The notes under the pieces were generated by a model that saw nothing but the letters and a program-made list of their open reading frames with translations, was not told the DNA's origin and ran no database searches. 64,000 bases of DNA from an uncultured virus (IMG/VR IMGVR_UViG_3300025769_000088). Its lineage: Duplodnaviria; Heunggongvirae; Uroviricota; Caudoviricetes. Below, one piece after another: positions 3,899 to 60,018 of this stretch (position 1 is the first letter of the stretch; each line of letters opens with the position of its first letter). The translations under genes and the position numbers were made by a program. The stretch is taken from IMG/VR virus record IMGVR_UViG_3300025769_000088, one strand, 5' to 3'.

Positions 3899-4137
3899 CA
3901 GACCACCTTCCCGTTCTTCCGAGTCACTCGGCCACAGCAGTCAATCGTGTCACCGACATGTACCGCAACGGCAGTGAATCCTTCGCCCCCCAGACGAAGC
4001 AGGCGTCGAGTCGCGTTGCCTTCACGACGATACGTCTTGAAGTTCTCGATGGGAGTCATGCGATAGAACTTCCCGTCGTTGCCCAGGGTGGTTCCGAATC
4101 GATCGCAACGAATAATCCAGTAAGCAGGCTTTGTCAT
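3898..4137 (-). CDS. Hypothetical protein
   Basis: GGAGTCACTGCG-ATG leader directly downstream of a promoter. Confidence 0.7.
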   Translation of the reverse strand: MTKPAYWIIRCDRFGTTLGNDGKFYRMTPIENFKTYRREGNATRRLLRLGGEGFTAVAVHVGDTIDCCGRVTRKNGKVV

Positions 4138-4180
4138 CGCAGTGACTCCGAAAAAAGATGTCGTTGACTTGTATGGCCCT

Positions 4181-4208
4181 ATCATAGGGCCAGAAGTATT
4201 GTCGTCAA
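4181..4208 (-). promoter_or_regulatory. Sigma70-type promoter TTGACG-N16-TATGAT with TGGCCC abutting the -10 box; palindrome TGGCCCTATGATAGGGCCA centred on the -10
   Basis: Direct reading of the reverse complement. Confidence 0.7.
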
Positions 4209-5934: not shown

Positions 5935-6131
5935 CGCGTTGTCTTTCCAGTCTCAATAAAGTTCTTCGCCGAGTTGAACGAGCCAAACGTCCGAGTCTGA
6001 GTGATCGTCGGACGGTACGCCACGACGTGAAACTCGTACGAAACACATCCGCAGTACTGAAACCCGCGAGGCGTGATCCAGCCGATGGTGACGCCCCGTG
6101 AATCCTTAACTTCCGTTGGTGTGGTCTTCAT
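5931..6131 (-). CDS. Hypothetical protein
   Basis: AGGAGTCACTACG-ATG leader. Confidence 0.7.
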   Translation of the reverse strand: MKTTPTEVKDSRGVTIGWITPRGFQYCGCVSYEFHVVAYRPTITQTRTFGSFNSAKNFIETGKTTR

Positions 6132-6181
6132 CGTAGTGACTCCTGACATGAAACATTAACAACTAACCCCTTACATCGACC

Positions 6182-7615: not shown

Positions 7616-8281
7616 TCAGACAGGGCGTAGAGCATCTTCGTCAGAATCTCCGCGAGCCAGTCTGGAATGGATTGTGCTTTTACACAGCCCAAGTTCTTCG
7701 GCCCAAGCTGTTAAAGGGCGTTGTTTCCCATCGCGAGTCAGCATGCGAGTTCTTCGTGTGTTTCGCTGCTGTTCTTTTCGAGTCGCCCAGCAGCAATTGT
7801 TGGGTTCGTATCCTTTGGAATTTTTAAGACGTTCGATGGAATGGTGCTTGCTGGGACGATGTCCCATATCTGCGAAAAAATTATCAAACGATTTCCAGCG
7901 ATCGCAGACACGAATGCCTCTTGCTCCGTAATACCTATAGTGTGTGTTTCTTGGATTGCAGCATCTCTGAAAAATGGCTTGCCAAACTTTGTATTCTGCG
8001 GTCGCTGCTTTTCCATGAGTCGTTAAATTGGCAATGCTTTTCTCAGACTTGTTTCGCTTGACTAATGCTTCTCGCTTGATGCATCCGCAACTTTGCGTCC
8101 TGTTGGCCAATAGATTCTTTCCAGCGACAAGCTTCTTACATCCGCAGGAGCAAAGACAATTCCACATTTGTCGGCTGGACGTAGCTTTTCCGGCGTAGGA
8201 AATCACCGTGAGCCGCCCAAACGTCTGGCCCTCTAAGTTCTTGAACTGAGGGTGCGTAGGCATTACGATAGCGTCAGTCAT
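7616..8281 (-). CDS. HNH homing endonuclease with N-terminal Cys-rich and C-terminal HTH-like modules
   Basis: YGARGIRVCDRW.SF.NF.ADMG.RP...HSIER..NSKGYEPNNCCWAT..EQ.RN; lower GC than neighbours. Confidence 0.9.
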   Translation of the reverse strand: MTDAIVMPTHPQFKNLEGQTFGRLTVISYAGKATSSRQMWNCLCSCGCKKLVAGKNLLANRTQSCGCIKREALVKRNKSEKSIANLTTHGKAATAEYKVWQAIFQRCCNPRNTHYRYYGARGIRVCDRWKSFDNFFADMGHRPSKHHSIERLKNSKGYEPNNCCWATRKEQQRNTRRTRMLTRDGKQRPLTAWAEELGLCKSTIHSRLARGDSDEDALRPV

Positions 8282-9392: not shown

Positions 9393-9799
9393 CTTTCTAG
9401 AAGATTGCTGAACGGCTCGTGCCCCTGGAAATCGACACCACGTCCATCGCGACCGATGTGAGAATCATCGTGCCCGGTCAGGACTCCGCCCTTGGCCACA
9501 GCAGTGGCAGGATCGCAGAGAGCGAAGACCTCGTTGTATTCGCGAACCGGGAACCAGGTCTTGACCATGACAGGTCCACCGAAGTCCTCTTCGTTGAGGA
9601 CAAACGAGTGAACGTCCCCACGACTGTCTCGTCCCGAGACGAACACACAGCGGTGACACCGGATTTTACCCAGCATCGCCACGGTGCAGCCGTTGCCCGT
9701 GAAGGACATGCCGTTGGCTGGATGGGCTGTAAGCTCCACGCCGTCACGGCTGAAGTAGATGCGGCCCGTTCCAACTTTTCCGAGTGATGCAGCTTTCAT
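9389..9799 (-). CDS. Hypothetical protein
   Basis: AGGAGATCACTACG-ATG leader after a promoter. Confidence 0.7.
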   Translation of the reverse strand: MKAASLGKVGTGRIYFSRDGVELTAHPANGMSFTGNGCTVAMLGKIRCHRCVFVSGRDSRGDVHSFVLNEEDFGGPVMVKTWFPVREYNEVFALCDPATAVAKGGVLTGHDDSHIGRDGRGVDFQGHEPFSNLLES

Positions 9800-9848
9800 C
9801 GTAGTGATCTCCTGAGGGAGTACAGTTGAACTGGTTACTTCATCGGTC

Positions 9849-12615: not shown

Positions 12616-12943
12616 CCAAGTAGTAAGACGCGAGTCGCGGATGAGGGTATCCGTAGTGCTCCAGGTTCAAATCAGTGATCCATGTCGCAAGCTTCTTGAA
12701 GCCACGTTTGTTGGGAATGTCTTTCTGCGTCCGACTAAGCTCCTGGGTCCAGCAGTGCTTCTCTTTGTCGTAGCCGCTGAGCCTGGCGATCTCAACCCGC
12801 ATCAGACGGAAGTCGACCCGGTAAACTGTGCGCAGGTCTTTCTCCATGTCGTCGATGAAGATGTCCAGGTCATGGCTCGTCGCCATGAAGTGTCCCGCCT
12901 TCTGTAATAGGACCAGAATCTCGTTGTACGTCATGGTCAGCAT
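12587..12943 (-). CDS. Hypothetical protein
   Basis: GGAG RBS. Confidence 0.65.
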   Translation of the reverse strand: MLTMTYNEILVLLQKAGHFMATSHDLDIFIDDMEKDLRTVYRVDFRLMRVEIARLSGYDKEKHCWTQELSRTQKDIPNKRGFKKLATWITDLNLEHYGYPHPRLASYYLDDKGHRTHV

Positions 12944-13448
12944 CGGAATCTCCCAGCTCTAGCTCTGTCGCCAGCTCTTCTGCCGTACGCAGCACAAATG
13001 CAATGGTCGAAGGATTTAGTCGACCTTCTCCGAAGTGAATGGTTGCTGTTTTTATCGCTCTTTGAATTATTTCTGAAGGAGTTACTTTGACTAATGTCGT
13101 CTCAGAGAAAGGCTGTCTGCCAAACATCCTTTCGAATTCTTCGATTCCTCGAATCGTCCAGAAACTGTCGTAGAAAACAGCTCTCTGAGATTGAATCCAT
13201 ATCCACATTGCTTCAGGGTCATTTACGTTGGGAGCTTCTCTGTGGCACCTCTTGCAGAGCAGCACGAGATTCTCAGGAATGTCTTCTCCGCCCAAAGATT
13301 CAGGAATTATGTGGCAACGATCTAACGCTGCTTTGTACGCACATCTCCAGCAACGCTCATGTGCGTCTGTCCAATCTACGCTGACATGACACTCGTCTTT
13401 TACATGGGACCAGTGCCAAACAATGTCAAGCAGAGTCGTCTTCGGCAT
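12870..13448 (-). CDS. HNH endonuclease
   Basis: CWRC...RCHIIPESLGG.D.PENLVLLCKRCH. Confidence 0.85.
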   Translation of the reverse strand: MPKTTLLDIVWHWSHVKDECHVSVDWTDAHERCWRCAYKAALDRCHIIPESLGGEDIPENLVLLCKRCHREAPNVNDPEAMWIWIQSQRAVFYDSFWTIRGIEEFERMFGRQPFSETTLVKVTPSEIIQRAIKTATIHFGEGRLNPSTIAFVLRTAEELATELELGDSDADHDVQRDSGPITEGGTLHGDEP

Positions 13449-14659: not shown

Positions 14660-15019
14660 TCAGGAATTGACTGCTCTTTTTCTGACAGGCGTCGTCAGAG
14701 CTTTTTCCAGTTCCCAACCACGATGCAGTCGCACGCTCAACACCGACCGACTCATTCCCATCTCGCGAGCCCAGGCACTCAAGGACTGCGTCCGACCGTC
14801 ATATGTGAGCAGCGTCCGAGCGTTGAAACCTTCCACTTGACGAGAGCATCCGCAGCTTTTGGTATTTCCGTGTTTCAGACACACTCCACGCACCGTGACA
14901 GCTTTCCCGCAATCACACCTGCACTTCCAATGTGTAAATGGCGATCCGTCTTTCGGAGTCGCTTCGCCGATTACTGTCAAGCTTCCGAATCGTTGGCCTT
15001 TAAGTGTTAATTTTTTCAT
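14660..15019 (-). CDS. Nuclease-less HNH-family derivative (Cys-rich module fused directly to HTH-like module)
   Basis: GQRFGSLTV...WKCRCDCG...TKSCGC then LTYDGRTQSLSAWAREMG...RL.RGW..EKALTTP; the central HNH is absent. Confidence 0.8.
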   Translation of the reverse strand: MKKLTLKGQRFGSLTVIGEATPKDGSPFTHWKCRCDCGKAVTVRGVCLKHGNTKSCGCSRQVEGFNARTLLTYDGRTQSLSAWAREMGMSRSVLSVRLHRGWELEKALTTPVRKRAVNS

Positions 15020-15147
15020 CGTGTTGCTTTCAATAATTCGACAGTCCAGTCGATGAGGATGTTTCCAATGGCAGCCAAAGCCACCAGGCCCAGGAAGGTC
15101 AGCCCTGTCAGTGAGACAGCGACCATGATCCAACTGAGATATTTCAT
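15016..15147 (-). CDS. Small membrane protein, 43 aa (MKYLSWIMVAVSLTGLTFLGLVALAAIG...), below the ORF-track cutoff
   Basis: ATGA overlap with 15019; one transmembrane segment. Confidence 0.55.
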   Translation of the reverse strand: MKYLSWIMVAVSLTGLTFLGLVALAAIGNILIDWTVELLKATR

Positions 15148-15209
15148 CACCCTGCCTTTCTAAGTCAGGAGTCCTGAGAGAACCGCCCCTGGTGACCAAC
15201 AGCCACTTT

Positions 15210-16356: not shown

Positions 16357-16809
16357 TCATTCTCCGTCGTAAGATACGCCTTGCAGTAAAGTCAGTTTTT
16401 CTTCGCCGTCATTTCCGTCTTTGGCAGCTTCGAGGTCGTCCCCCATCTGTTCGCAAGCCGCAACACGGGCTTCCAACAGCTCACCTGTTGGACCCATCTG
16501 AAGACCTTCTGGCATGTTATTGAAGGATTCGTCGGCAGCATCTCGCAACGCTTCAACGCGACTCACAAGATCGTTGATAAGGTCGTCGGCACCCTCACCT
16601 CCCAAGTCCTCCTGGGACATGTCTTCGACTTCTTCAATGATCGAATACATCTCTGAAAGAAACTCAGAACGAGTCAACTGTGAGGCTCGTGGTCGAGTTC
16701 TGCTGTAGCTCTTCGAGCTGTAGGCAAATTGCCACCAATAGTAAGGCTCGCCTTTTTTGACGGCAGGATTATCTTTACGGGCTTTTTGGACGTAGTTGAC
16801 TCGTGGCAT
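16357..16809 (-). CDS. Conserved hypothetical phage protein (KKGEPYYWW...NMPEGLQ.GPTG)
   Basis: AGGAGTCACTGCG-ATG leader; familiar phage hypothetical motif. Confidence 0.75.
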   Translation of the reverse strand: MPRVNYVQKARKDNPAVKKGEPYYWWQFAYSSKSYSRTRPRASQLTRSEFLSEMYSIIEEVEDMSQEDLGGEGADDLINDLVSRVEALRDAADESFNNMPEGLQMGPTGELLEARVAACEQMGDDLEAAKDGNDGEEKLTLLQGVSYDGE

Positions 16810-16841
16810 CGCAGTGACTCCTGGGTTAGTTGTTTCAGAAA

Positions 16842-21363: not shown

Positions 21364-21438
21364 TGACTCCGGCAGGTGTCGAACCTGCACTGACACGGAT
21401 TAATGTTCCCGCCGCTCTGCCAATTAAGCTACGGAGTC
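21364..21438 (-). tRNA. tRNA-like gene with aberrant anticodon arm (identity undetermined)
   Basis: Acceptor GACTCCG/CGGAGTC, D-arm GCTT-AATTGGCA-GAGC, T-arm GCAGG-TTCGACA-CCTGC; anticodon loop AACATTAA is 8 nt and lacks U33. Confidence 0.75.
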
Positions 21439-25287: not shown

Positions 25288-25598
25288 TACAGCCTGCCTG
25301 CCAACTTCGTGAACTCTTGGTCTCGATCTTTTCTGCCTTCGGCATTTTCAGAATACGTGACGTGAAAGCTGGCTCCTCGTATGTCTACGAAAAATATGCA
25401 GGGGATTTGTCGACCGGCTTGCTGCTTATCGTCCTTCCAGAACCGGGCAATGTCATCCAGCACGATACCTTGACGATTATTGAACAACATTGATTCGCTA
25501 CTCACTGTAATTTCTCCAAAAGCTTTCAACACGAACGGGTTTCTTCTTCGCAGAACTGGAGTTGGCTTGCGTCGTGACGTCGTGACGTTCCCAGCCAA
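25287..25598 (-). CDS. Hypothetical protein (start uncertain)
   Basis: TAATG overlap with the downstream gene; overlaps the MTase 3' end. Confidence 0.45.
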   Translation of the reverse strand: MAGNVTTSRRKPTPVLRRRNPFVLKAFGEITVSSESMLFNNRQGIVLDDIARFWKDDKQQAGRQIPCIFFVDIRGASFHVTYSENAEGRKDRDQEFTKLAGRL

Positions 25599-26349
25599 AT
25601 ATCTCTGCAGCGTTGTCGTACGGCTCGCACAGGTATCCGGACAGCAGGAACTTTCCCTTGAACTTGCCCAGGTAGGTCAGGAGTTTGGCATGGTCCGCTT
25701 CGGACATCTCATGCTCGTAATCTCCGGCCACGCGAGTCGAAGGATGATAGGGAGGATCGAGATAAGCGAAAGCGGACGGCTTCGAGAATGCTCTCAGTAC
25801 TGACAGGGCAGGTCTGGAGTAGACCATGGTCCTGCTCAGCCGGTGAATGCACTCTTCGAGACCGTCGATGGCGGACAGCCAGGCGGACGTCTGCTCGTTT
25901 CCTTTACGCCGAGTCCTGGTGCAGGTCGGAGTCGCAAAGTCTTTCCCCAGAGCCTGCCGAGACATGCGATACTTGACGAAGAACGCCCAGGCCCTGCCGA
26001 CTCTGCCGTGCAGATCAGGGCTGCCGGACAGCGCGTAGTTGAAGTCAGACTCGTGGAACGGAGTCAGCCTCAGCTGCTCCAACAGCTCTTCTTTCTGCGA
26101 CGATCTCAGCACCCGGTAGAAGTTGATCAGCTCTTCGTTGATGTCGTTAATGACCTCGGCCACACCAGGACAGTCGTCGACATGGTCAGGTGGAACGACT
26201 CCGCAGTGAGGACAGGTCCAGTCCCAGTACTCGTTGATCGCTCCGGCAAACGGGATGATCCTGGTCACGTATTGTGCCGGAGCCAGTTCCCAGATTTTCT
26301 TGCGGAGGTAATGTTTCCCACCATGATATTTCAGGGGAGCCGTTGTCAT
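25498..26349 (-). CDS. D12-class (Dam-like) N6-adenine DNA methyltransferase
   Basis: LKYHGGK, PFAG, EVINDIN..L.NFY.VL, YLDPPY. Confidence 0.9.
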   Translation of the reverse strand: MTTAPLKYHGGKHYLRKKIWELAPAQYVTRIIPFAGAINEYWDWTCPHCGVVPPDHVDDCPGVAEVINDINEELINFYRVLRSSQKEELLEQLRLTPFHESDFNYALSGSPDLHGRVGRAWAFFVKYRMSRQALGKDFATPTCTRTRRKGNEQTSAWLSAIDGLEECIHRLSRTMVYSRPALSVLRAFSKPSAFAYLDPPYHPSTRVAGDYEHEMSEADHAKLLTYLGKFKGKFLLSGYLCEPYDNAAEIFGWERHDVTTQANSSSAKKKPVRVESFWRNYSE

Positions 26350-26382
26350 CTCAGTGTGCCTGTGTGAGTGTTTTGATTCGAC

Positions 26383-26417
26383 AAAAAAGGGCCAGAGCAT
26401 GGCTGCTCTGGCCCTTT
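26383..26417 (-). terminator. Intrinsic terminator after csrA
   Basis: AAAGGGCCAGAGC / GCTCTGGCCCTTT stem followed by a T-run on the minus strand. Confidence 0.75.
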
Positions 26418-26435
26418 CCATGGGTGACCAAACCC

Positions 26436-26612
26436 CTACTGCTGCTCGCGCTCTTTGGACTCTCGCACCTCTCGCCGGTCAATGGCTATGTTTCGTGGAG
26501 CCTCAATTCCCAAACGGACCTGCCCGTTGGTTCGGTTGACTCCCACGACTTTGATGACGATGTTGTCGCCAATCAGAATGTCTTCGTCTTCTTCTCGCGT
26601 CAGCACCAGCAT
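26436..26612 (-). CDS. csrA: Carbon storage regulator CsrA/RsmA homologue, 58 aa (absent from the ORF track)
   Basis: MLVLTREEDEDILIGDNIVIKVVGVNRTNGQVRLGIEAPRNIAIDRREVRESKEREQQ; GGAGG RBS. Confidence 0.9.
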   Translation of the reverse strand: MLVLTREEDEDILIGDNIVIKVVGVNRTNGQVRLGIEAPRNIAIDRREVRESKEREQQ

Positions 26613-26635
26613 CTTACATCCTCCGTGAAAACAAC

Positions 26636-26695
26636 AAAAGAAAAACCAGCCTGCGTCACCTCGGAGTCACTACAAACCTGATTCCGCAGGCTGGT
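26636..26695 (-). terminator. Terminator-like hairpin with a 29-nt loop, upstream of csrA
   Basis: 11-bp perfect stem ACCAGCCTGCG/CGCAGGCTGGT followed by TTTTCTTTT. Confidence 0.65.
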
Positions 26696-26811
26696 CGTCT
26701 CGGATTCCAAGAAACGATTTCAAAAACCACCCGAAGGCATTCTGCAATAACAGAAGAATCGGACTGGTGTCTGAGCACGAACTCAGAATTTCTCACCCGA
26801 CAAGGTGAGAG

Positions 26812-26880
26812 TGGAGCGACAGGATTCGAACCTGAATTTCCCCGCGAGGCGGGGCGACTTATCCGTTAGTCGATGGCTCC
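26812..26880 (-). tRNA. Degenerate tRNA-like element (CTC at the arm apex, collapsed anticodon loop)
   Basis: GGAGC/GCTCC acceptor, D-arm GACT-AACGGATA-AGTC, CCCCGC-CTC-GCGGGG, CAGG-TTCGAAT-CCTG. Confidence 0.65.
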
Positions 26881-26889
26881 TGACGCCTG

Positions 26890-27174
26890 CTATCTGCATC
26901 CTCGAAGCCTGCGTCCGAGGTTGTATCCCCACTGGTAGCTGGGAGAGTACCTGTTGACGTACCCGTAATTGGAGTACTGCGGAGCGTACCGATTGATTCC
27001 GAGAGCGTAGTCGGTTCGGTTGTATGCTTGGGAGTAGTCGCGGGAGTAGACGGCCTGCGGATACTGGTACGCAGGCTGAACGTAAACATAACGACCGTGC
27101 TGCCACACGACGTCTGCATTGCAGACGGCAGGCATCAGGGCCACAGCAGCAATCAACATCAACAGAGTTCTCAT
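26890..27174 (-). CDS. Small secreted Tyr-rich protein
   Basis: AGGAG RBS; signal peptide MRTLLMLIAAVALMPAVCNA; Y/Q/R-rich mature part. Confidence 0.75.
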   Translation of the reverse strand: MRTLLMLIAAVALMPAVCNADVVWQHGRYVYVQPAYQYPQAVYSRDYSQAYNRTDYALGINRYAPQYSNYGYVNRYSPSYQWGYNLGRRLRGCR

Positions 27175-27221
27175 CAGTCTTCTCCTGGTCAAAGTGAAGT
27201 GAAATAAGCAGCTTTGCAAAG

Positions 27222-27250
27222 AGCATAGGGCCATGGGAGTTGTGTGTCAA
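27222..27250 (-). promoter_or_regulatory. Sigma70-type promoter TTGACA-N17-TATGCT, spacer ends ATGGCCC
   Basis: Direct reading. Confidence 0.8.
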
Positions 27251-27482
27251 GTTCCGATTGAGAATTTTCTTGTTAGATAATTACGTCGGAATTATCCATC
27301 GCAGAGAATCAGTAGTTATGTTGCAAAGTGCCGGTTACCAGCGTCCGGCGATGATGTTTAGCCTCATCGGTTTACAGCAGCCCTGATGTGCTCAGTGCCA
27401 CTCACACGGCGCGTCACGCTTCCGACTCAGATTTAGTCGGAATGGGCCACTGATTTTGGGCGTTCTGTCAGTAATAGGGTCG

Positions 27483-35506: not shown

Positions 35507-35848
35507 TCACCGACTCTCAATGATGCGGTTGTGCCAGTAAGCGATGTCCGCATCGACCGACACGTTGATGCGTTGCCAATTTCCGAGATGACAGATCAAA
35601 AGATGGCAATTTATTCCGTAGCGCTTCGCTTCGCAGATGGCGATCAGATTTTCTTCAGACAATTCCAAATGGGGCGCAAGCGAAAATGGGATGCGATGAT
35701 GCGCAACTAACTTTCTACGACCCCCACACACGGCACATGACTTGCCTCGCAGAAACTCATCCCTCACACGTCGCCACTGGGGCGACCTGCGTTGGCCCGG
35801 CAGTGCTTTGCCGGGCAGGGTGTCTGCAAGGTCTCGCCATGCACTCAT
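35507..35848 (-). CDS. HNH endonuclease
   Basis: W..VR, CAVCG, HHRIP....P.LEL.EENLIAIC...CH. Confidence 0.85.
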   Translation of the reverse strand: MSAWRDLADTLPGKALPGQRRSPQWRRVRDEFLRGKSCAVCGGRRKLVAHHRIPFSLAPHLELSEENLIAICEAKRYGINCHLLICHLGNWQRINVSVDADIAYWHNRIIESR

Positions 35849-35865
35849 GCTATTCTCCGGTCCTA

Positions 35866-37104
35866 TCAAATGGCAATCAGAACCTGATCTGAGAACCTGG
35901 TCAACGCCGTGTAGAGATGGTTGCTTTCGTTCCCCCGGAAGCATTCTGACTCGTCAATGACCAGTCCAGATTCCCATTGACTTCCCTGCGACTTGTGGAC
36001 CGTCAGGCAGCTTCCGAAGTCGAACCAGTGTGCCGATGCAATGGTAAAGTAGTCAACTGCATTGGTGTCTTCGCCTCGAAAGATCATGGACAACGCCTCG
36101 ACGTCGACCGTCGAAGGCTCGTCATTGCTCGCGACTCGCATGTACCGTCGCAAGTCATCCGAATGATCATCCACATCCTGCACCGTCCACAGCCCCCCAT
36201 TCAGCAAACCTTCCTGGGCATTGTTCTTCAGACACACCAGCTGCTCACCAGGCGTCGGGTACATCTCCTCAATGCCTGCCAGGTCACGCAGTCGCTGATT
36301 GGTCGTTCGTCGCGTCTTGTTGCGTCCGCAGAGAATCATGTCCAGCTCCTGGACCTGCTGCGTCCGTTCCTTCAGCTCGACCATGGAGATGACTTCGGAC
36401 TTCCCGTATTTGCCCAGGGGGAGGGGTTGTTTCTTACGGACCTGTGTCGCGAGTCTCAGGATCGGATCGTCTTTCGCCTGACGATGAATCTCTGTCAGCA
36501 GAATGTCAGGTCGCTGCTTCGTGAAGTATCCTGCCCCACCCACAGGTGGCAATTGCCCAGGGTCTCCGAGCACCAGTATCGGGACGCCGAAGCTGCAGAG
36601 GTCTTCGCCCATCCTTGTGTCGACCATCGTGACCTCGTCTACGATGATCAGGTCACAAGACTTGATGTCTGAGTTTCGATTGAGCGTGAATCGAGGCTGA
36701 CTCAGCCTCGCATTCTCGTCAGTGATCTGCTCCTGCAGGAAGGTGACTCGGCGATGGTTGATAATGTCGTCGTCTTCGAGACCTTCGGCTGCCAGACTGA
36801 GCTTCAGCTTGAACAGTTCTTCCCGCATCTCGGCGATGTCGGCTTCGCTCTTTGGCGACGGCAGGTAAATCATCGAGTGCAGAGTCGCAGCGTTCAGGCA
36901 GCCCTTCTGACGCAGCACCAGAGCCGCTTTGCCGGTGTACGCTCCGAAGGCGACTCGACCTGCACCTTCGGCAAAATGTCTCGCGAGAGTCGTCTTGCCG
37001 GTGCCCGCAAAGCCGAACAGTCGGAAGACCTGCTGATCTCCAGGATTCTTGAGCCAGGCGGCGACCTTGGACAATGCCTTGTCCTGTTGTAAACCCCATT
37101 GCAT
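35866..37104 (-). CDS. RecD/Dda-like SF1B helicase
   Basis: GFAGTGKTT, AYTGKAA, IVDE, GDPGQLPPV, IHRQ, TVHKSQGSQW, YTALTR. Confidence 0.92.
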   Translation of the reverse strand: MQWGLQQDKALSKVAAWLKNPGDQQVFRLFGFAGTGKTTLARHFAEGAGRVAFGAYTGKAALVLRQKGCLNAATLHSMIYLPSPKSEADIAEMREELFKLKLSLAAEGLEDDDIINHRRVTFLQEQITDENARLSQPRFTLNRNSDIKSCDLIIVDEVTMVDTRMGEDLCSFGVPILVLGDPGQLPPVGGAGYFTKQRPDILLTEIHRQAKDDPILRLATQVRKKQPLPLGKYGKSEVISMVELKERTQQVQELDMILCGRNKTRRTTNQRLRDLAGIEEMYPTPGEQLVCLKNNAQEGLLNGGLWTVQDVDDHSDDLRRYMRVASNDEPSTVDVEALSMIFRGEDTNAVDYFTIASAHWFDFGSCLTVHKSQGSQWESGLVIDESECFRGNESNHLYTALTRFSDQVLIAI

Positions 37105-43419: not shown

Positions 43420-46400
43420 TATCCCACTTCTCCTGTTCGAAGTTCTGCAACCCAGTTAACGGTTTCGCCTGAGCCACCTTTTGCTTGAATCGCCACGCCA
43501 GATGAATACACAATCACCTGGCAATCCCACGTTGCGTCGTCTTCAAAGTCTGCGGTCACTGAATTGTAAGCCAGCGTCGTGACCGCAGACACCCGTTTGA
43601 CCAGTGCCTTAACGGTGTATGTGGCGACCTTCGCCCCGGTAGACAGGTAGCCGGTCACCGTCCCTGTGATCCTCATGCAACTGTTGTTGGGAATCTGCAA
43701 CGAATCCGTCGCACTGTCTGCTCCGCCGTCTGCCGTCAGGCTCAGGAACGTGTCAGTTGTCGTCTGTCGCCGCAGCACCACGTCACGGCTTTGGGCGTCA
43801 CCGTCTGTGGCGAATGAACCCGACGCTCTGGCGACTGCACCCCGCATCGTGCGAGTCGTCGCTTTGTCGCCCATCGCCGTACTGACAACGCCGTCCGCAA
43901 GATTGTCGAGTCCGCCGGGAACGCACGAGTCAGTCCCGCTGGCCGTGTTGGAATGCCCACCACCGATATGACTTCCGTCACCACTGGCTACGTTAAGTTC
44001 GCCGCCGCAGATAGATGCGTGGTCATCAGTGGCGTCGTTGTCGTATCCTCCGCCGACAAACGCACCTGTACTGGATACCAGGTTACGCAGACCGCCACCA
44101 AGAAACGAGTAGTTGCCTCCTGTGTTAGTATTAAGATATCCGCCAACTATGACTCTTGCTGACGCTAAACCTGTGATGGAGTTAGTCCATCCTCCACATA
44201 TCACATTGTATTCATAGGTGCTTGTAATAGCATTACTTCTGCCACCGCCAATGTAGGAGTAGTTAGACGTAGTACCAGATATTGAGTTCGATTTGCCACC
44301 ACCGATTCCCGCAACCGCAACGTTGCCAGATATCGTGTTAGTTGCACCACCACTGATGACGTTGGATGCGTTGGTCGAACTGATGGTATTGTCTGCACCT
44401 CCGCCGATAGCGTTGTTGACTGCTGTGCCCGTGATGTCATTATTGTTCCCGCCAGCGACTGTCTGGTAATTTCCGCTCGTCAAGTTCCCCAGACCGCCGC
44501 CGATAGTCGAATCAGTCCCGCCCGCTGCATTGGAATGCCCACCACCGATATGACTTCCGTCACCACTGGCTACGTTAAGTTCGCCGCCACCGACTGATGC
44601 GTGGTCATCAGTGGCGTCGTTATTCTGACCGCCGAGAACGCAGGAGTAGTTCGACGAAGTGTTGTTCGTGTATCCGCCGCCGATGAAACACCCAGAGCCG
44701 TTGTCAGATAGGTTCCCGTTCCCGCCAACAATAACGTTGTAGAGTCCTGCGGTGATCGAGTTGGTTGTGCCACCACCGATGAAGCACTGGTCCGATGGGT
44801 TGGTCGTGATCGTGTTGTCTTCGCCACCGCAGATCACGGCATCATCAGCACCGGCAGCCATCGTGTTGCGAAGACCGCCACCGATGAAGCCACGGAGGGC
44901 ATGGACTTCATTATTTTGCCCGCTGACGATACCACAGACGTGAGCGGAGATTATGTTTTCACTGCCACCTCCGATGAACGACTCATCAGAACCAACAGAA
45001 GCACCGACACCACTGATCGTGTTCAACGACCCGCCCACGATAGCTGAACTGAGTCCATACACTTCGTTGTTTTGTCCGCCGACGATGGATGACGCTGTTT
45101 CCACCAGTACGTCGTTGTTGAGACCTCCGCCGATAAAGCCGTACTGGCTGGAGACCGTGCCGCCCGATCCACCCGCAATAGTTGCCGAATCCGCCGTCAC
45201 GGAGTTGGTAATACCACCACAAACAACAGCGTTGTCTGCGGTTAAAGTGTTGTTGACCCCGCCACCCATGAATGAGAAACTGGGGGCACCAGTGATGTCG
45301 TTGTTCTGACCACCGACAACGACATTGGCCCTGCCGTCCGTGATGTTACCCCATCCACCGCCGATAAAATTATGCTCATTCGTTCCTGTTATCTCGTTGG
45401 CTTCCCCACCCACGATGATGTTGTGGCTGTTGGTGGACGTGATGTCGTTGGAGAAGCCACCCACAATGCTGTTGTATGATCCGCCCGTGATCGTACAAGT
45501 GTTGCCGTTGACAATCGTGTTGTAGCTGTTGGTGGACGTGATGTCGTTGTTGTAGCCGCCACCGATGAATCCACGAGAACCTGCCACACTGCTAAAGCTA
45601 CCACCCACAATGACGCTGTGGTTGCTACTGCCGCTAATCTCGTTGGCTTCACCTCCCACGAGTACGTGGTAGTCACCTGTGGACGTGATGTCGTTGGTGC
45701 GGCCCCCTCCCATAAATCCCCAACTACTTGCCAGGGTATTGAGTTCGCCGCCGACGATGACACCGTTTTCTTTGGTGCCTGCCACGATCTCATTGTCTTG
45801 GCCGCCCACGATGATGTTGTAAGCACCCGTGGCGACGATCGCGTTCGAGAGGCCACCACCGACGAAGGCGTAGTTGCTCGACCCCGCAGAGTTGGACTGC
45901 CCACCGACGACGACTGCTGCTGAGCCTGACAGGCTGTGTCCAAACCCACCGCCAATAAAACCATGCTCTCGGGTGCCACTGATCGTGTGGGCCTCACCAC
46001 CGACGATGGTGTTGTAGTCGTTCGTGCTGCTGATCGTGGAGTTGTAGCCACCGACGATGATGCCGTAGTTGCCGCTGACTGCGTTCACGTCGTTGCTCAG
46101 ACCGCCGACGATAACGTGCCGGACGCCTGGGCCTGTTGTGTTGGTTGAGCCGCCACCGATGAATCCTGTGTCTCCAGCGATGACGTTGGATGTACCACCA
46201 GCTATCGTGGATGCGAGTGCTGTCGTTGTGATCTGGTTGGCGTTGCCACCACCAATCGTGTTGTCGTCAGCAGTGGACGTGATGTCGTTGTTGTTGCCGC
46301 CCACAATCACCGAGTGATCCGCACCCGATGCGATCGAGCAGTTCTGCCCGCCGCCGAGGAATCCGTAGTTAGCAGCATTCGAGTTCGACGCACCACCTGC

Positions 46401-47753
46401 CACACTCGCCAGCGTGCCGGATACCGTGTGGCCTGTGCCGACTGAGAGCGTGCCGACCATCGCGACGTTGCCGCTGTCGTCTTCAGTCGTCTGTCCGTCC
46501 TGCAACACCTTTCCAGTTGTGGAGTCGTAACGGGCGACCGCATTGTCTGTTGATGTTGCTGGGCCTGACACGTCGCCTGCTGCGACTCCACTGCTCGGGG
46601 ATGTCGACGGCTGAAGTCCGCGAAGGTCTGTCTTCAAACTCTGCACCCATGCTCCAGAATTCTTCGCCTGAACGGTGTAGCGTGCGATCAGAAAACCGAC
46701 GCCAGTGTACTCAGACGGAATCGTATAGTTCGCAGTCGCCTGATCATCTGACTGGGCTGACGCTTCTGAAGTGTAAACGTCAGAAGGCAAGTTGATCATC
46801 AGCTTGCAGTCTGCCTGCTCCTGACTGACCACTCCCCACAAGACCAGATTCATATACTTGTTGTTGATCGTGTTCCCTGCAGCATCCTGTGTAATGTCGT
46901 CGAACGTCGTGATGCGTTTGAAAGCTGTTGTCGGATCGTTGGTCAGGTAAGCTGGATCGCCCAAACTCATATCGCGGGCTGGCATCGTCTGGTCGTGCAA
47001 CTGAAACACTGTGCCAGAAGTCACTGAGACGTACGCATCTGGACTTACAGCAGACAGGTCAGACGGAACTACACCGTCAGACCACGTCGCCGGAAGCGAT
47101 CGCAGCTTCTTGTTGATGTGGGCGAGGTGTCCGTTCTCAGTCTCCGACGATATATGGTCCGTCCATGAGTGAACCTTGAAAGCACCGTCAGTTGCAAGGC
47201 TTGCTGCTGACTGACAGTAGGCAGTGGCGACCGGAGCATGAGCCGTGGCAGGCCAGCCGCTCGTCGAAGCAGCCAAAGTCAGCGTTCCACCGGACTCTGT
47301 GACGTAGATCCAGTTCTGCACCGGAACTGTATCCGTGCCTGCTGTCAGCGTAACTTCTGCCGCTGGTGTGCAGTCGAGCGTGTAGAACGAGCCGCCGAAT
47401 TGAATCTCAAGATCGCCCCCGCCCTGTAACTGGAGTTGAAGTTTGATGCTGCCAGTGTCCTCGATCACGTCGATGTCGATGGTGCCCTTCATCGCACCGT
47501 CGAGCAGCGGCAGTATGTTCGCCAGGTTGCCTGGGCTAAGCCCAGAGTCGATCCAGCCTCCGCCGACACCGTCGTTGGTTTCGAAGACGATCGACCCGTC
47601 ACTGGGCTCCAGACGCATTCGCGCCATCTGGCCAGTAGCTGTTTCGAACAGTTCCCACGAGGGATCAACTCCGCGCGTACGCTGAGTTTCGATGCGGACT
47701 TCTTTGATCGTCTTGTCGGAACTGGGTCGTTCTGAAATCGTATCCACAGGCAT
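43419..47753 (-). CDS. Long tail fibre with many Gly-rich 'I.GG..N' repeats
   Basis: Long run of 13-16-aa (F/V)IGGG..N.I repeats; follows the J gene. Confidence 0.85.
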   Translation of the reverse strand: MPVDTISERPSSDKTIKEVRIETQRTRGVDPSWELFETATGQMARMRLEPSDGSIVFETNDGVGGGWIDSGLSPGNLANILPLLDGAMKGTIDIDVIEDTGSIKLQLQLQGGGDLEIQFGGSFYTLDCTPAAEVTLTAGTDTVPVQNWIYVTESGGTLTLAASTSGWPATAHAPVATAYCQSAASLATDGAFKVHSWTDHISSETENGHLAHINKKLRSLPATWSDGVVPSDLSAVSPDAYVSVTSGTVFQLHDQTMPARDMSLGDPAYLTNDPTTAFKRITTFDDITQDAAGNTINNKYMNLVLWGVVSQEQADCKLMINLPSDVYTSEASAQSDDQATANYTIPSEYTGVGFLIARYTVQAKNSGAWVQSLKTDLRGLQPSTSPSSGVAAGDVSGPATSTDNAVARYDSTTGKVLQDGQTTEDDSGNVAMVGTLSVGTGHTVSGTLASVAGGASNSNAANYGFLGGGQNCSIASGADHSVIVGGNNNDITSTADDNTIGGGNANQITTTALASTIAGGTSNVIAGDTGFIGGGSTNTTGPGVRHVIVGGLSNDVNAVSGNYGIIVGGYNSTISSTNDYNTIVGGEAHTISGTREHGFIGGGFGHSLSGSAAVVVGGQSNSAGSSNYAFVGGGLSNAIVATGAYNIIVGGQDNEIVAGTKENGVIVGGELNTLASSWGFMGGGRTNDITSTGDYHVLVGGEANEISGSSNHSVIVGGSFSSVAGSRGFIGGGYNNDITSTNSYNTIVNGNTCTITGGSYNSIVGGFSNDITSTNSHNIIVGGEANEITGTNEHNFIGGGWGNITDGRANVVVGGQNNDITGAPSFSFMGGGVNNTLTADNAVVCGGITNSVTADSATIAGGSGGTVSSQYGFIGGGLNNDVLVETASSIVGGQNNEVYGLSSAIVGGSLNTISGVGASVGSDESFIGGGSENIISAHVCGIVSGQNNEVHALRGFIGGGLRNTMAAGADDAVICGGEDNTITTNPSDQCFIGGGTTNSITAGLYNVIVGGNGNLSDNGSGCFIGGGYTNNTSSNYSCVLGGQNNDATDDHASVGGGELNVASGDGSHIGGGHSNAAGGTDSTIGGGLGNLTSGNYQTVAGGNNNDITGTAVNNAIGGGADNTISSTNASNVISGGATNTISGNVAVAGIGGGKSNSISGTTSNYSYIGGGRSNAITSTYEYNVICGGWTNSITGLASARVIVGGYLNTNTGGNYSFLGGGLRNLVSSTGAFVGGGYDNDATDDHASICGGELNVASGDGSHIGGGHSNTASGTDSCVPGGLDNLADGVVSTAMGDKATTRTMRGAVARASGSFATDGDAQSRDVVLRRQTTTDTFLSLTADGGADSATDSLQIPNNSCMRITGTVTGYLSTGAKVATYTVKALVKRVSAVTTLAYNSVTADFEDDATWDCQVIVYSSGVAIQAKGGSGETVNWVAELRTGEVG

Positions 47754-50700
47754 CAGGCAAACTCCCTCACGTAAATATCCGCAATCCAATTGATGGTCGT
47801 AGCTGCCACACCCGTCACCTTGATGGCGATTCCGCCGTTTGTCGTATCAGCGGCAATCTCCACATCCCAGGCTTCGACGTCTTCATGCAGCACCGTCAGC
47901 ATGCTGGTGACTTCTGCCACAGACGCTGCTCCTGTACCACGTTCGAAGATGCCTTCAATGAAGTACTTGGCTCGCTCAGTATTGTCACTCTTCTTGGCAA
48001 TTAGCGTGCCTTCGAATCGCAGCGTATTGTCGTCTGTCAACACAATGATGTTCGTGGCAGCGGCAGCGTCCCCATTGGTGGTCAGCGTGGTCTGAGTGTC
48101 ATTAGTCGTCTGCGTCTGCAGGGTGACCTGGTCACCGTCGTTGTGGAAGTAGACCGTGAAGTCTTCGAGCAGAGGAATCGTGTCGTCGACCGGGTCGCGC
48201 TGAAGAACGATGCGGAACTTCGACGTGATAAATTCGTACGTGGCTTCTTCGAATGGCAGGAACTCTCCGGTGCCATCGAGCTGAATGAAGACTGACAGGT
48301 AGGGCGTGTTTTCCGGGTAGTCCAGTGTGATTGGATAGTCAGCATCATTGATCAGGTCTACAGCATCATTGATCAGCAGCACATCATCCGCCACTGAGGA
48401 CACGGTGTATTCAACCCAGAGACGGCCTTTGCGGAGACCTGCGAAGTCGAAGTCGAAGTCGTACTGACCGTAGTTGGCGGTGCTGGTAAGTGTCAGTTCA
48501 TCGGACACATTGACTTCCAGCGGAGCAACTACTTCTTGAGTTTTCCAGTAACTGAGATCGGAGTTCAGTGTGACCTCTGCTCCCACAGCATCTGTGAAAG
48601 CTGTGCCCAATTCGCCATCAAAGTTGGTAGTGCCAGAAGTATGGAAAGAGCCGTCTCCTTCGATCCAGTCTCGCATTCCAGGTGAGGTTGCGTAATCAAT
48701 CTCTTGCCTGAAAGCATTTCCGCGAACACTCCCTTTCATGCGACAGCCATTGGGATCAGTGTGGGAGTACAACGTGCCGTTCAGCCAGACATCAATCGAG
48801 GCTGCAGTGTCGAAGTCACCCTGGTTCACTTTGACCACCAGGTCCATGGCGGTGTCTTTAGGAACAGTGCCTGCAGCGATCTCCACCCGAGGTGACTGAA
48901 TCGGGTCCATGTGATGATGCAAGTTCCAGCGTTCGTCTGATGTGGCTACGCGATCCATCAAGACAACCTTCCGAAGCACGCCGTAGAAGGGAGTGCCTGT
49001 CCTTGAGCCCAGGTAGAGGCTGGGGGATGCGACGTCGGAAATGCTGCTGGCAATCGTCGTGGAGTTGCTGGACAGTCCGTACACGTTGTCTCGATCGAAA
49101 TTTCTGAGTTCTCCGCTCAACAGTTTGGTTGACTCGGTGTACCAGATAACGGCGGTGCCTGAGGCAATACTGCTGTCAACTCCAGTCACATCCAGCTCAG
49201 TGGTAGAGCTGTCGTTGACCGTAACTTTCATCTTGCTGCCGGACTCAAAGAACTGGACAATGACTGTGGCACCACCAGCACCTCCCACCTCGAACACTGT
49301 GCCTTCATAATCTTGGTCGGGGTCCATGTACCACTCGAAGGACAGTGTCCAGTCCTTGCCCGCAAATGTGTGTCCTGAGCCTGTCAAATAAGCCCCATTG
49401 CCAAAGACCGCACCTACCCCCATTGTTGGGCAGTAGTGCAGAGTTTCTGCGGTCACTCCACCTGTCACTGTCAGATCATTGGAACCGAAACTGTCCAACC
49501 TGTTGCCGGATGTTTCGTACAAGGGCCAATGCCCGACCATGCTTGTGGTATCGGCAAGTTGGTACAGCAGAGGATCGGTAGAGCCTGCGCGAACGATCAG
49601 ACTGCCTGCAGAGTCAAATGCTGCAATGATGCCTTTCTGCTCATTGTCTGCAGTAGGGCCAGCTTGCCAGATAGCTCCTTCCGCAGTTCCTACGCTGGAG
49701 ACAGTCAAGTTGACGTGGAAAGTAGGGTCTTCATGACTGCTGATTTGATCAGAGTCGCTACTTGGAGTCGATGTCGTATCTATGACATCGGTGTCTTGAA
49801 AGACGGAATACGCATCTGGCCCATGCAGCAAGAAGCCTGCTGCAGCCGCAGAATCCACTTCGCTCCACGCCGGATGCTCCGCCTGACTCTTCACTCGATA
49901 TCCACTGACGACCGGGAACTGAGTGTGGGATACCGTGGTCTCTGGTCCGTAATGTTTTCTGCCAGACGTCAGCAACACGAACGGCTTGACTCGAATCGTG
50001 ACTGTGGATTCGGCGTCCACCGAGAATGGAGCTTCCACGTACGGAGTCGCCACCGTACTCAAGAGCTGAGCAGTCTCCCAGTTAGTGCCTCGATGCCGTA
50101 CTTCGTACTGCACGTTGGCTACGCCTGTCAAAGGTGTCCATCGGACTCGGATGTTGTGCAGTCGCTGGTAGGAGATCAACGAAGTGACTGCAGAAAGAAC
50201 CTGCACCGAAGTTGTCACGGACGTCGAGAACTCTGACTCGTTGCCTGTCGTGTCAATCGCTTTGATGAGGTACGTCACCTCGTCTGTGGTGTCGACGTCC
50301 ACGATGTATTTGGTTCCGGCGAATCGTTCGACAATCGTCGTCGCCTCTTCCCACGACTGACCTTCTTTAATGTTGTAGCCCAGCAGGTCGATGTCGGTCG
50401 CCTGATCCCAAGAGAGGGTGACGGTGACGAAGCCTCGCACTGCCGTGAAGTTCTCAACCTTGCCGGGCTTGACGGTTTTTCCAAGCACCGTCTGATTCAA
50501 CAGCTCAGCGGTGGAGACGATGTGAGTCGCCGCCAAGGCATCAGAAGTCGAGCTGACCCAGAAGGACCAGACTCCTTCTTCTGCAGGTTGGATGGTGATG
50601 TTCGGAATGGCTGTCAACGCAATCATCTCGCGGTTGCCGGAAGGCGACAGTGCCTCGACCTGATACAGCATAACCCGAGCATCCTTGGCAGGACTCCATG

Positions 50701-59664: not shown

Positions 59665-60018
59665 TAGAACTTCCTTTTATCTTACGGTTCTTCTTCGACT
59701 GCTTTTCCTGCCACTCCAAAAATAGTCCGTCCATTTTTCGAATGAGCTTCAGCATGAGATAAGACATCTCTTCGTCCAGATTCCATTCTTTGCAATAAGT
59801 GATGATCGAAGAGTATGGAATAGGTCCAGTGCTCATGCCTAGTTGCCTGTCAGGAAAAATTTCCCAGAAGGCGTCGTAGTAAATGCTCAGTCCTTGAAGC
59901 AGCTCAGGCTCATCGAGAAGGGCCGCAGGTATCTCAGATTCATCTTTGTCCTGATACCTCATGTGCATCACTTCTCGATGCTTTCCATACGCCAGTTGCC
60001 ACTTCAGGACTTCTAGGA
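59657..60018 (-). CDS. Tail assembly chaperone, -1 frameshift extension (gpT-like)
   Basis: Open -1 frame from the slippery GGGAAAC; RQ.GMS.GPIP..I..Y. Confidence 0.75.

Follow-up and report, generated by a model that had tools for sequence, protein, structure and literature searches.

A conserved phage hairpin loop antisense to a leader shared by dispersed genes: a candidate small RNA against ribosome-binding sites

Class-wide control of translation in phages is known mainly through proteins, T4 RegA being one that turns off a group of early phage mRNAs through occupancy of their ribosome-binding sites (RBS), and the antisense RNAs known from phages mainly have a single target. The element described here is a hairpin with a large loop, located upstream of csrA on the minus strand of a 64,000-nucleotide stretch of DNA (the window) from an uncultured virus of the Caudoviricetes (IMG/VR record IMGVR_UViG_3300025769_000088). 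Its loop is antisense to a leader that several dispersed genes of the same phage carry just before the start codon, and the effector that we propose is, unlike RegA, an RNA. Bacterial small RNAs (sRNAs) of the Hfq type, or derived from 3' untranslated regions (UTRs), combine a terminator hairpin and U-tail with a short seed for the RBS of several mRNAs, and are released from longer transcripts. The corresponding element of distant relatives of the window phage lies, like such RNAs, between a stop codon and a terminator. However, Hfq-type sRNAs work with loose seed matches, whereas the seed of the window belongs to the terminator hairpin's own loop and the regulon would be set by an identical leader.

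The c4 RNA of phages P1 and P7 is cut from a longer transcript by RNase P. It is described as a phage sRNA with loops complementary to the RBS of phage mRNA, by which translation is blocked, and its loop and target specificity is reported to differ between related phages (PMC12197685). The window loop resembles c4, as well as the P4 CI RNA (Rfam C4, RF01695), in being complementary to the RBS of phage mRNAs, with 11-15 bp at four leaders of the window and seven of a relative with 75% DNA identity (G002). In contrast to c4, whose targets belong to its own operon and to one gene block, the window loop addresses four to seven dispersed genes by their shared leader; genes 4137, 6131, 9799 and 16809 are 10-22 kb distant, with other promoters and terminators in between. 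The placement of the seed in a terminator hairpin, with the tRNA-like part as a separate upstream element, is another difference. Neither the window hairpin nor that of the distant relatives belongs to a catalogued Rfam family, no match being above threshold. At gathering score the whole window returned one tRNA and nothing else, hence no C4, and at E<=10 over 26400-27300 there was only noise around the hairpin and no C4 either.

The second comparison is with Cluster K mycobacteriophages, which carry a 13-bp start-associated sequence (SAS), GGGATAGGAGCCC, before 11-19 non-structural genes; it is conserved beyond what pairing with 16S rRNA explains, and its role was stated as unknown in 2011, 2024 and 2025 (PMC3203893, PMC11373665, PMC12699233). 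K1 phages have just one copy in reverse, located elsewhere than at a gene start (PMC3203893). Term searches in the main texts of these three papers found no mention of antisense RNA. The window leader resembles the SAS in that it is an asymmetric repeat with a Shine-Dalgarno (SD) core just before the ATG of a non-structural subset of genes, those of the SAS following intergenic gaps. Nevertheless, the window leader GGAGTCACTRCGATG is unrelated to the SAS in sequence and in phage group and does not fit the consensus GGGATAGGAGCCC, so that it is an analogue and not a member. In Anaya (JF704106, L296) the reverse SAS was found in a 385-nt non-coding gap (L296 39850-39905, record 59849-59904); it reads GGCCUCCUAUCCC on the coding strand, where a hairpin is predicted with CCUCCUAUCC as its 10-nt loop. 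Six of the eight Cluster K phages aligned retain both hairpin and loop, and the parallel with the window system is partial. The statement in the first-pass annotation that no described phage system is built this way was thus too strong, given the loops of c4 RNA complementary to the RBS (PMC12197685) and the start-associated sequences of Cluster K (PMC3203893). Literature searches, covering their sources in part, gave nothing equivalent to a class-wide phage anti-leader RNA, which is not proof of absence.

The loop and its complementary leaders

Within the loop of the window hairpin, GUAGUGACUCC is an exact antisense match to GGAGUCACU(A/G)C. The motif GGAGTCACTRC has exactly four occurrences in the 64 kb: on the minus strand it precedes G and ATG at 4139, 6133 and 16811, and the only plus-strand copy, at 26663-26673, is the antisense of the loop. 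Gene 9799 has the motif in the form GGAGATCACTACGATG, and its G002 orthologue has the canonical leader. The central claim of the first-pass annotation, a hairpin loop antisense to a leader shared by a set of genes, is therefore real, with the exact motif before three window genes plus one variant; the pair counts that it gave for genes 6131, 4137 and 16809 (Table 1) were reproduced on recomputation and its coordinates were right. In G002, (G)GAGUCACU lies three bases before the ATG of seven genes, five of them with the exact 11-mer, while the 8-nt core GAGUCACU has a single antisense copy, located in the hairpin. At up to one mismatch, 11 forward and two reverse copies were found in G002, versus one and one for the reversed-pattern controls. 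Orthologues keep the motif even though the rest of the 5' UTR cannot be aligned (6131 and G002 44324).

The distance from the motif to the ATG is fixed, whereas the spacing to the promoter ranges between about 9 and 54 nt and three leaders have no adjacent promoter; the motif is therefore probably read on RNA at the start site and not on DNA. As an asymmetric repeat with an SD core that precedes the start codons of some genes by a few bases, in one orientation, the leader has the properties of a start-associated sequence. That it marks a class of genes, as had been suggested in the first pass, agrees with its constant spacing from the ATG in part of the non-structural genes. The proteins encoded by the targets are small and without family, the exception being a methyltransferase-like protein in G002, and host-type promoters together with their location in the non-structural arm suggest that these genes are early.

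Loop and leader pair across the SD and spacer and into the AUG, of which the first base or bases are covered. The predicted duplexes reach -25 to -33 kcal/mol in 10 of the 11 motif leaders and -21.0 kcal/mol in the remaining one (G002 32343), compared with -11 to -14 kcal/mol for leaders lacking the motif (those of csrA, of an open reading frame (ORF) of 94 amino acids termed ORF94, and of gene 5707). The predicted cost of opening is 3.8 kcal/mol for the seed, whose 5' two-thirds is predicted to be unpaired, and 5-13 kcal/mol for the mRNA sites. Mimicry of 16S rRNA pairing by the leader spacer was considered and dropped: the fit of the leader to the presumed 16S 3' end is limited to GGAG, with AGAAA added in the relatives, and does not extend to UCACUAC and CAC.

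The full-loop duplex scan was too noisy, and contiguous-helix and enumeration tests were used instead. At up to one mismatch on both strands the window has seven matches versus a shuffle mean of 2.59, and two of 100 shuffles reach seven. When every 7-mer was placed 5' of the anti-SD CUCC, with at most one G-U pair allowed, GUAGUGA was the sole one of 16,384 that pairs with at least three of the 78 GGAG-type start candidates of the window, and it tied for the top in G002 (6 of 74). Loop shuffling gave the following picture: G002 has five exact 11-nt sites versus a mean of 0.23, a number reached by none of 300 shuffles; the window has two site bins versus 0.30 for exact 11-nt pairing, which is not significant (12 of 300), and six versus 2.0 when up to one G-U is accepted (5 of 300, with coarse merging of sites).

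Four distinct lineages carry the element: the window (identical in G001), L005/L218, L006/L244 (G002) and L217; their primases are 81-86% identical and their DNA about 75%. Across them 46 of the 49 hairpin columns are invariant, compared with 40 of 121 in the upstream RNA and 7 of the 33 that precede csrA. The three variable positions of the loop are all 3' of the seed (CCGAGGUGA, CCGGGGUGA, CCGAAGUGC), and the change in the loop of L217 adds a closing G-C pair. Judged by this conservation, the loop is under selection. The minimum free energy of the hairpin is -34.3 kcal/mol (z -3.5), with none of 200 shuffles as good, and a second fold gave z -4.6. The G+C-rich stem followed by a U-tract is that of an intrinsic terminator, the U-tract being possibly a terminator tail and Hfq site; the loop of 29 nt is not, intrinsic terminators having short ones (3-8 nt), and the large-loop hairpin was not listed by a terminator scan of the window. 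Since an ordinary terminator of the same phage, that after csrA, has a loop of 4 nt, the 29-nt loop is unneeded for termination.

A second loop and leader pair in distant relatives

A primase profile identified about 150 related loci whose primase is 40-56% identical. By tblastn over the IMG/VR loci, the distant relatives lack the csrA block between polA and primase, and csrA was matched in just one of about 60 of them (L182), where it is located elsewhere. Many carry the leader agaaAUGGAG(C/A/G)AC N3-6 AUG. Seven loci (L180, L181, L185, L199, L248, L249 and L254) have a hairpin with the loop GUGCUCCAU; L185 and L249 are identical there, which leaves six distinct loci, with primases about 47-50% identical. 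This hairpin is intergenic, just past the stop codon of an AAA-ATPase-like ORF and ahead of a canonical terminator, and its 9-mer loop is invariant while the stems differ widely. GUGCUCCAU is the exact antisense of AUGGAGCAC, which is the commonest or joint-commonest leader 9-mer of each locus with two to four copies. When the 1024 loops of the form XXXCUCCYY were ranked by the number of GGAG-type start candidates that they match, the observed one came first in four of the six loci, once tied, and second in the other two. The loop is also antisense to the leader form agaaAUGGAGCAC.

Compared with GGAG-CAC/GUG-CUCC in these relatives, the window clade has GGAG-U-CAC/GUG-A-CUCC, the extra U of the leader being met by an extra A in the loop. 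Hence, at the level of sequence, loop and leader differ together between the clades, GUAGUGACUCC/GGAGUCACUAC in one and GUGCUCCAU/AUGGAGCAC in the other. Covariation of loop and leaders in related phages, which the first-pass annotation had named as a check, was accordingly positive at clade level, with two matched pairs. The window and G002 both lack a homologue of the AAA-ATPase ORF, and the two hairpins are therefore not syntenic. A covariance model of the relatives' hairpin (R1) recovered only its six seeds (E 7e-18 to 2e-9) from 59 long loci and the window, and Rfam gave for this hairpin only a sub-threshold NsiR1 match (E 0.059).

A different kind of repeated leader was seen in L255, a 15.4-kb metagenome locus in which GAAAAGGAGCA precedes 10-15 candidate starts and no antisense copy of it exists within the 15.4-kb stretch. 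GAAAAGGAGCA resembles an extended SD matching what is presumably the usual 16S 3' tail, which is a different explanation for a repeated leader.

Proposed action and competing explanations

We consider it somewhat probable, from sequence comparison, that the hairpin belongs to a phage-encoded sRNA acting in trans against RBS. The host-type promoter at 27250 would drive a transcript comprising a small ORF, the tRNA-like element and a structured RNA of about 170 nt; it would end at the large-loop hairpin and its U-tract, with part of the transcription reading through into csrA. Once cut at the tRNA-like element, the transcript would yield an RNA of about 170 nt (26810..26640) whose apical loop would show UUUGUAGUGACUCCGA. 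Every mRNA with the start-associated leader GGAGUCACU(A/G)CGAUG would be a target; a kissing contact would be followed by zipping over 11-15 bp of SD, spacer and the first base or bases of the AUG. Pairing would exclude the 30S subunit, and a set of non-structural, mostly promoter-proximal small genes would be lowered together. What the sequences show is the complementarity, the conservation of the hairpin, the joint difference of loop and leader between clades, and predicted energies that favour pairing; transcription, processing and timing of the proposed RNA, and repression as the direction of its effect, are what we infer.

Several observations weigh against such an sRNA. The fold predicts weak pairing of the seed's CC in a 2-bp helix, although L217 does not support that helix, and when the full 29-nt loop was scanned on the coding strand, sites in coding regions scored like leaders. 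Within the window clade loop and leader never change, so that there is no base-by-base covariation; the comparison between clades depends on two hairpins that are not syntenic and perhaps not homologous. The stem is invariant as well, which simple RNA pairing would not need. Promoters of the same class precede the RNA and its targets, and a role as timer needs an additional assumption such as accumulation or a delay in processing. Among the relatives, loci with AUGGAGAAC leaders have no GUUCUCCAU within the stretch examined, and L190, with AUGGAGCAC leaders, has no hairpin within its 22 kb. Antisense copies of repeated SD-containing 8-mers in 63 loci showed no excess, with 234 site clusters on one strand versus 607 control hits on two, in a crude count whose definition of start sites let in many false starts and whose controls were reversed motifs. 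In Cluster K, SirPhilip, with an unrelated loop, and Amohnition, with a degenerate one, have 11 and 13 exact SAS copies; the loop is therefore unneeded for retention of the SAS there.

The hairpin may instead be primarily a cis element of the csrA leader, that is, a leaky terminator or attenuator and/or a site of CsrA autoregulation, the gene leaders being an independent translation signal for the ribosome or a protein and the complementarity functionless; we hold this to be rather unlikely. The hairpin precedes csrA and its SD GGAGGAUGU by 33 nt, and a promoter scan of this interval gave no promoter-like site, so that csrA presumably depends on read-through; as csrA is closed by its own terminator, the hairpin lies within the csrA 5' UTR of any read-through transcript. 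GGA is found within the loop on its 5' margin (GCGGAAUC), in the preceding small hairpin (UUGGAAUC) and in the csrA SD, the invariance of the stem and of the 5' half of the loop suggests recognition beyond the seed, and the Cluster K authors suspect a protein reader of the SAS (PMC11373665). However, a cis element leaves unexplained both the loop as unique best antisense of the leaders and the second, non-syntenic hairpin that matches the leader of relatives without csrA. Moreover, no such hairpin accompanies csrA in four other phage loci, the loop pairs weakly with the csrA SD (-10.9 kcal/mol), and the 171-nt RNA has only two GGA and no Rfam match, unlike a sponge of the CsrB/RsmZ type with many GGA in hairpin loops. 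The earlier idea that CsrA targets the same GGA as the sRNA found no backing beyond the presence of the GGA itself, CsrA being the most variable neighbour and other csrA loci lacking the hairpin. If the pairing is real, it could also run in reverse or locally, with leader mRNAs binding the loop to tune termination, read-through or translation of csrA, or with the loop acting in cis on nearby starts. The position of the hairpin in the csrA leader is compatible with this, as is the leader carried by the nearest downstream gene in relatives (L180; in L199, hairpin at 16637 and leader at 16790). Nevertheless, it is quite unlikely, as there are several targets per genome, those of the window are 10-22 kb off in other transcription units, and binding to the loop should leave the 10-bp G+C stem unmelted.

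Two further explanations do without pairing. An ordinary terminator might by chance hold in its loop the antisense of a repeated leader: the chance of one antisense 11-mer in 64 kb is estimated at a few per cent genome-wide (~0.03), and exact 11-nt matches in the window alone were not significant, as reported above. Chance is very unlikely because the antisense copy sits in a loop that is conserved in four lineages, a second matched pair exists in other relatives, and the length of the loop is atypical for terminators of this phage. Alternatively, the motif may be a DNA-level site present in both orientations (for a binding protein, a recombination event or module boundary, or a homing endonuclease), or the remnant of a plus-strand RBS. 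Invariance of the whole 49-bp element, stem included, beside highly mosaic flanks would fit a DNA site, as would the HNH/AP2-type endonuclease gene directly upstream of a csrA with diverged 5' part in a near-identical contig. The fixed distance to the ATG with variable distance to the promoter, the strong bias in orientation, and the second clade, which keeps the loop and not the stem and thus argues for RNA, speak against it; no ATG, GTG or TTG follows the plus-strand motif, and the minus strand carries all credible genes. Of all these explanations we give the DNA site, together with the remnant, the least credence.

One loop matched to an identical leader on dispersed genes, with a different matched pair in related phages, would be a simple and portable post-transcriptional regulon, and the purpose of start-associated sequences becomes a directly testable hypothesis. 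An sRNA directed at a leader class could be one case of something wider, namely that start-associated leaders are RNA "address tags", that several unrelated phage groups encode a dedicated hairpin-loop RNA reading the tag, and that clade-specific pairs are the specificity determinants of a class-wide shut-off of the phage's non-structural genes. This generalization is tentative and we lean against it. Were it true, address-tag pairs might exclude superinfecting relatives with the same tag, in a multi-gene version of P1/P7 heteroimmunity. For the Cluster K SAS, which has lacked an explanation since 2011, it would provide a mechanism in the K1 subcluster at least.

The csrA neighbourhood and other features of the window

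The features of the hairpin, its transcript and the leaders are collected in Table 1.

Table 1. Positions of the leaders, the hairpin and neighbouring features (window coordinates unless a locus is named)
Feature	Position	Strand	Remarks
Leader GGAGUCACUACGAUG of gene 6131 (66 amino acids)	6129..6143	-	11 Watson-Crick pairs with the loop
Leader GGAGUCACUGCGAUG of gene 4137 (79 amino acids)	4135..4149	-	13 pairs including one G-U
Leader GGAGUCACUGCGAUG of gene 16809 (150 amino acids)	16807..16821	-	11 pairs including one G-U
Variant leader GGAGAUCACUACGAUG of gene 9799 (136 amino acids)	9797..9812	-	one extra A, 1-nt bulge
Large-loop hairpin	26646..26694	-	10-bp G+C-rich core stem; 46/49 columns invariant in four lineages
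Core stem, arm CCAGCCUGCG	26694..26685	-	
Core stem, arm CGCAGGCUGG	26655..26646	-	
29-nt loop GAAUCAGGUUUGUAGUGACUCCGAGGUGA	26656..26684	-	26/29 columns invariant
Seed GUAGUGACUCC	26663..26673	-	exact antisense of leader GGAGUCACUAC
U-tract UUUUUCUUUU	26636..26645	-	after the stem; U-rich in all four lineages
csrA (58 amino acids)	26436..26612	-	Pfam CsrA PF02599, 70.2 bits (cut-off 27), E 1.4e-19
Canonical intrinsic terminator after csrA	26383..26414	-	4-nt loop, z -4.3
Sigma-70-like promoter TTGACA-17-TATGCT, GGCCCTA class	27222..27250	-	10/12 matches
ORF94 (94 amino acids), hydrophobic N-terminus	26890..27174	-	homologues 71% (L005) and 39% (L006)
tRNA-like element	26811..26880	-	acceptor-like stem, D-arm, GGTTCGAATCC T-arm; ARAGORN at relaxed settings only
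First small hairpin UCUCACC/GGUGAGA	26791..26810	-	stem covaries between lineages
Second small hairpin CUGAG/CUCAG	26770..26787	-	
Invariant box ACCAGUCCGA	26759..26768	-	RNAalifold pairs ACCAGU with csrA start region AUGCUGGU (26605-26612) in all four lineages
Relatives' hairpin, loop GUGCUCCAU	L180:16146-16219		
Relatives' hairpin	L181:14300-14379		
Relatives' hairpin	L185 ~5824		
Relatives' hairpin	L199:16611-16686		
Relatives' hairpin	L248:16144-16215		
Relatives' hairpin	L249:15326-15400		
Relatives' hairpin	L254:16411-16482		

The promoter at 27250 is presumed to start the transcript that ends at the hairpin. The order of promoter, secreted-peptide ORF, tRNA-like element and hairpin given in the first-pass annotation is present here, and its part from the ORF to the hairpin recurs in the relatives. 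The tRNA-like element itself was called by neither default ARAGORN nor Rfam and lacks the 7-nt anticodon loop of a tRNA, a 6-bp stem with a 3-nt loop replacing the anticodon arm in the fold. In L006 and L217 a different tRNA-like element occupies the same place (Leu-like, in relaxed ARAGORN with an "intron"). ORF94 has no Pfam or PHROG family, and its sequence suggests a signal peptide. The RNA of about 170 nt that follows the tRNA-like element is structured (z -4.5). The stem of its first small hairpin is paired as CUCACC/GGUGAG, CCAUG/CAUGG and CCGUC/GACGG across lineages, with covarying pairs UA<->CG and CG<->UA, each kept in two of the four sequences; these double changes retain pairing and the region therefore evolves as RNA. 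The predicted pairing of ACCAGU with the start of csrA is tentative, consisting of 6 bp only with no compensatory change.

CsrA is far more divergent than its neighbours: the window protein is 48-53% identical to those of L005/L006, and the other lineages are 56-75% identical among themselves, versus about 80% for the methyltransferase, 81-86% for primase and about 84% for polA. A near-invariant hairpin beside a divergent csrA points to a sharp mosaic boundary or to fast evolution of csrA. The hairpin as a general companion of phage csrA was rejected on the four other csrA loci mentioned above, whose CsrA is 33-53% identical and which have no comparable upstream hairpin. In the L003/L136 contig, with a primase 100% identical, an HNH/AP2-type endonuclease ORF ends at the csrA SD (L136:1-330), the 5' part of csrA has diverged (79% identity) and its start is apparently a non-canonical codon. 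This arrangement resembles the insertion of a homing endonuclease accompanied by a co-conversion tract. The contig breaks off at this point, so that its hairpin region is cut off and was left out of the scoring. The D12-class methyltransferase ORF (25498-26421, minus strand) overlaps the csrA terminator if started at the ATG of the longest ORF, 26421; the ATG at about 26347 is the more likely start.

The hairpin is rare in the databases searched. Blastn of 26300-27400 against 50,697 phage records gave no match, a 21-mer of the loop had none among GTDB genomes, and scanning GTDB with the primase profile returned only relatives at most 56% identical, in metagenome-assembled genomes of many phyla. 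IMG/VR scans with a 14-mer and a 15-mer returned 95 and 22 stretches; the hairpin was present in only three contigs, and the context of the other stretches indicates that they are mostly chance matches.

The credible genes of the window are ordered as tail genes (64-41 kb), replication genes (40-22 kb) and, from 20 to 0 kb, small genes whose function is unknown, together with several HNH endonucleases. Four HNH-endonuclease-like ORFs were assigned by PHROG in the non-structural arm (7619-8281, 12873-13448, 14663-15199 and 35510-35944, minus strand), and the ORF of 1456 amino acids at 43422-47789 (minus strand) has no PHROG family. For the tRNA gene at 21364-21438 (minus strand; Rfam 44.2 bits) ARAGORN gives "taat", an anticodon of four bases, and no amino acid; the gene may have an anticodon loop of 8 nt or be a miscall. 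The promoter class TTGAC(A/G)-N11-TCTGGCCCTA(A/T)G(A/C)T, with a conserved TCTGGCCCTA spacer/-10 region, precedes many small genes of the window and occurs about 20 times in G002. Its GGCCCTA lies at 27232, 17439, 14622, 9859, 9006, 6192, 4191, 1680/1665 and 62 on the minus strand; at 4191 and 17439 it is paired with an inverted TAGGGCC, an arrangement that suggests an operator for some regulator.

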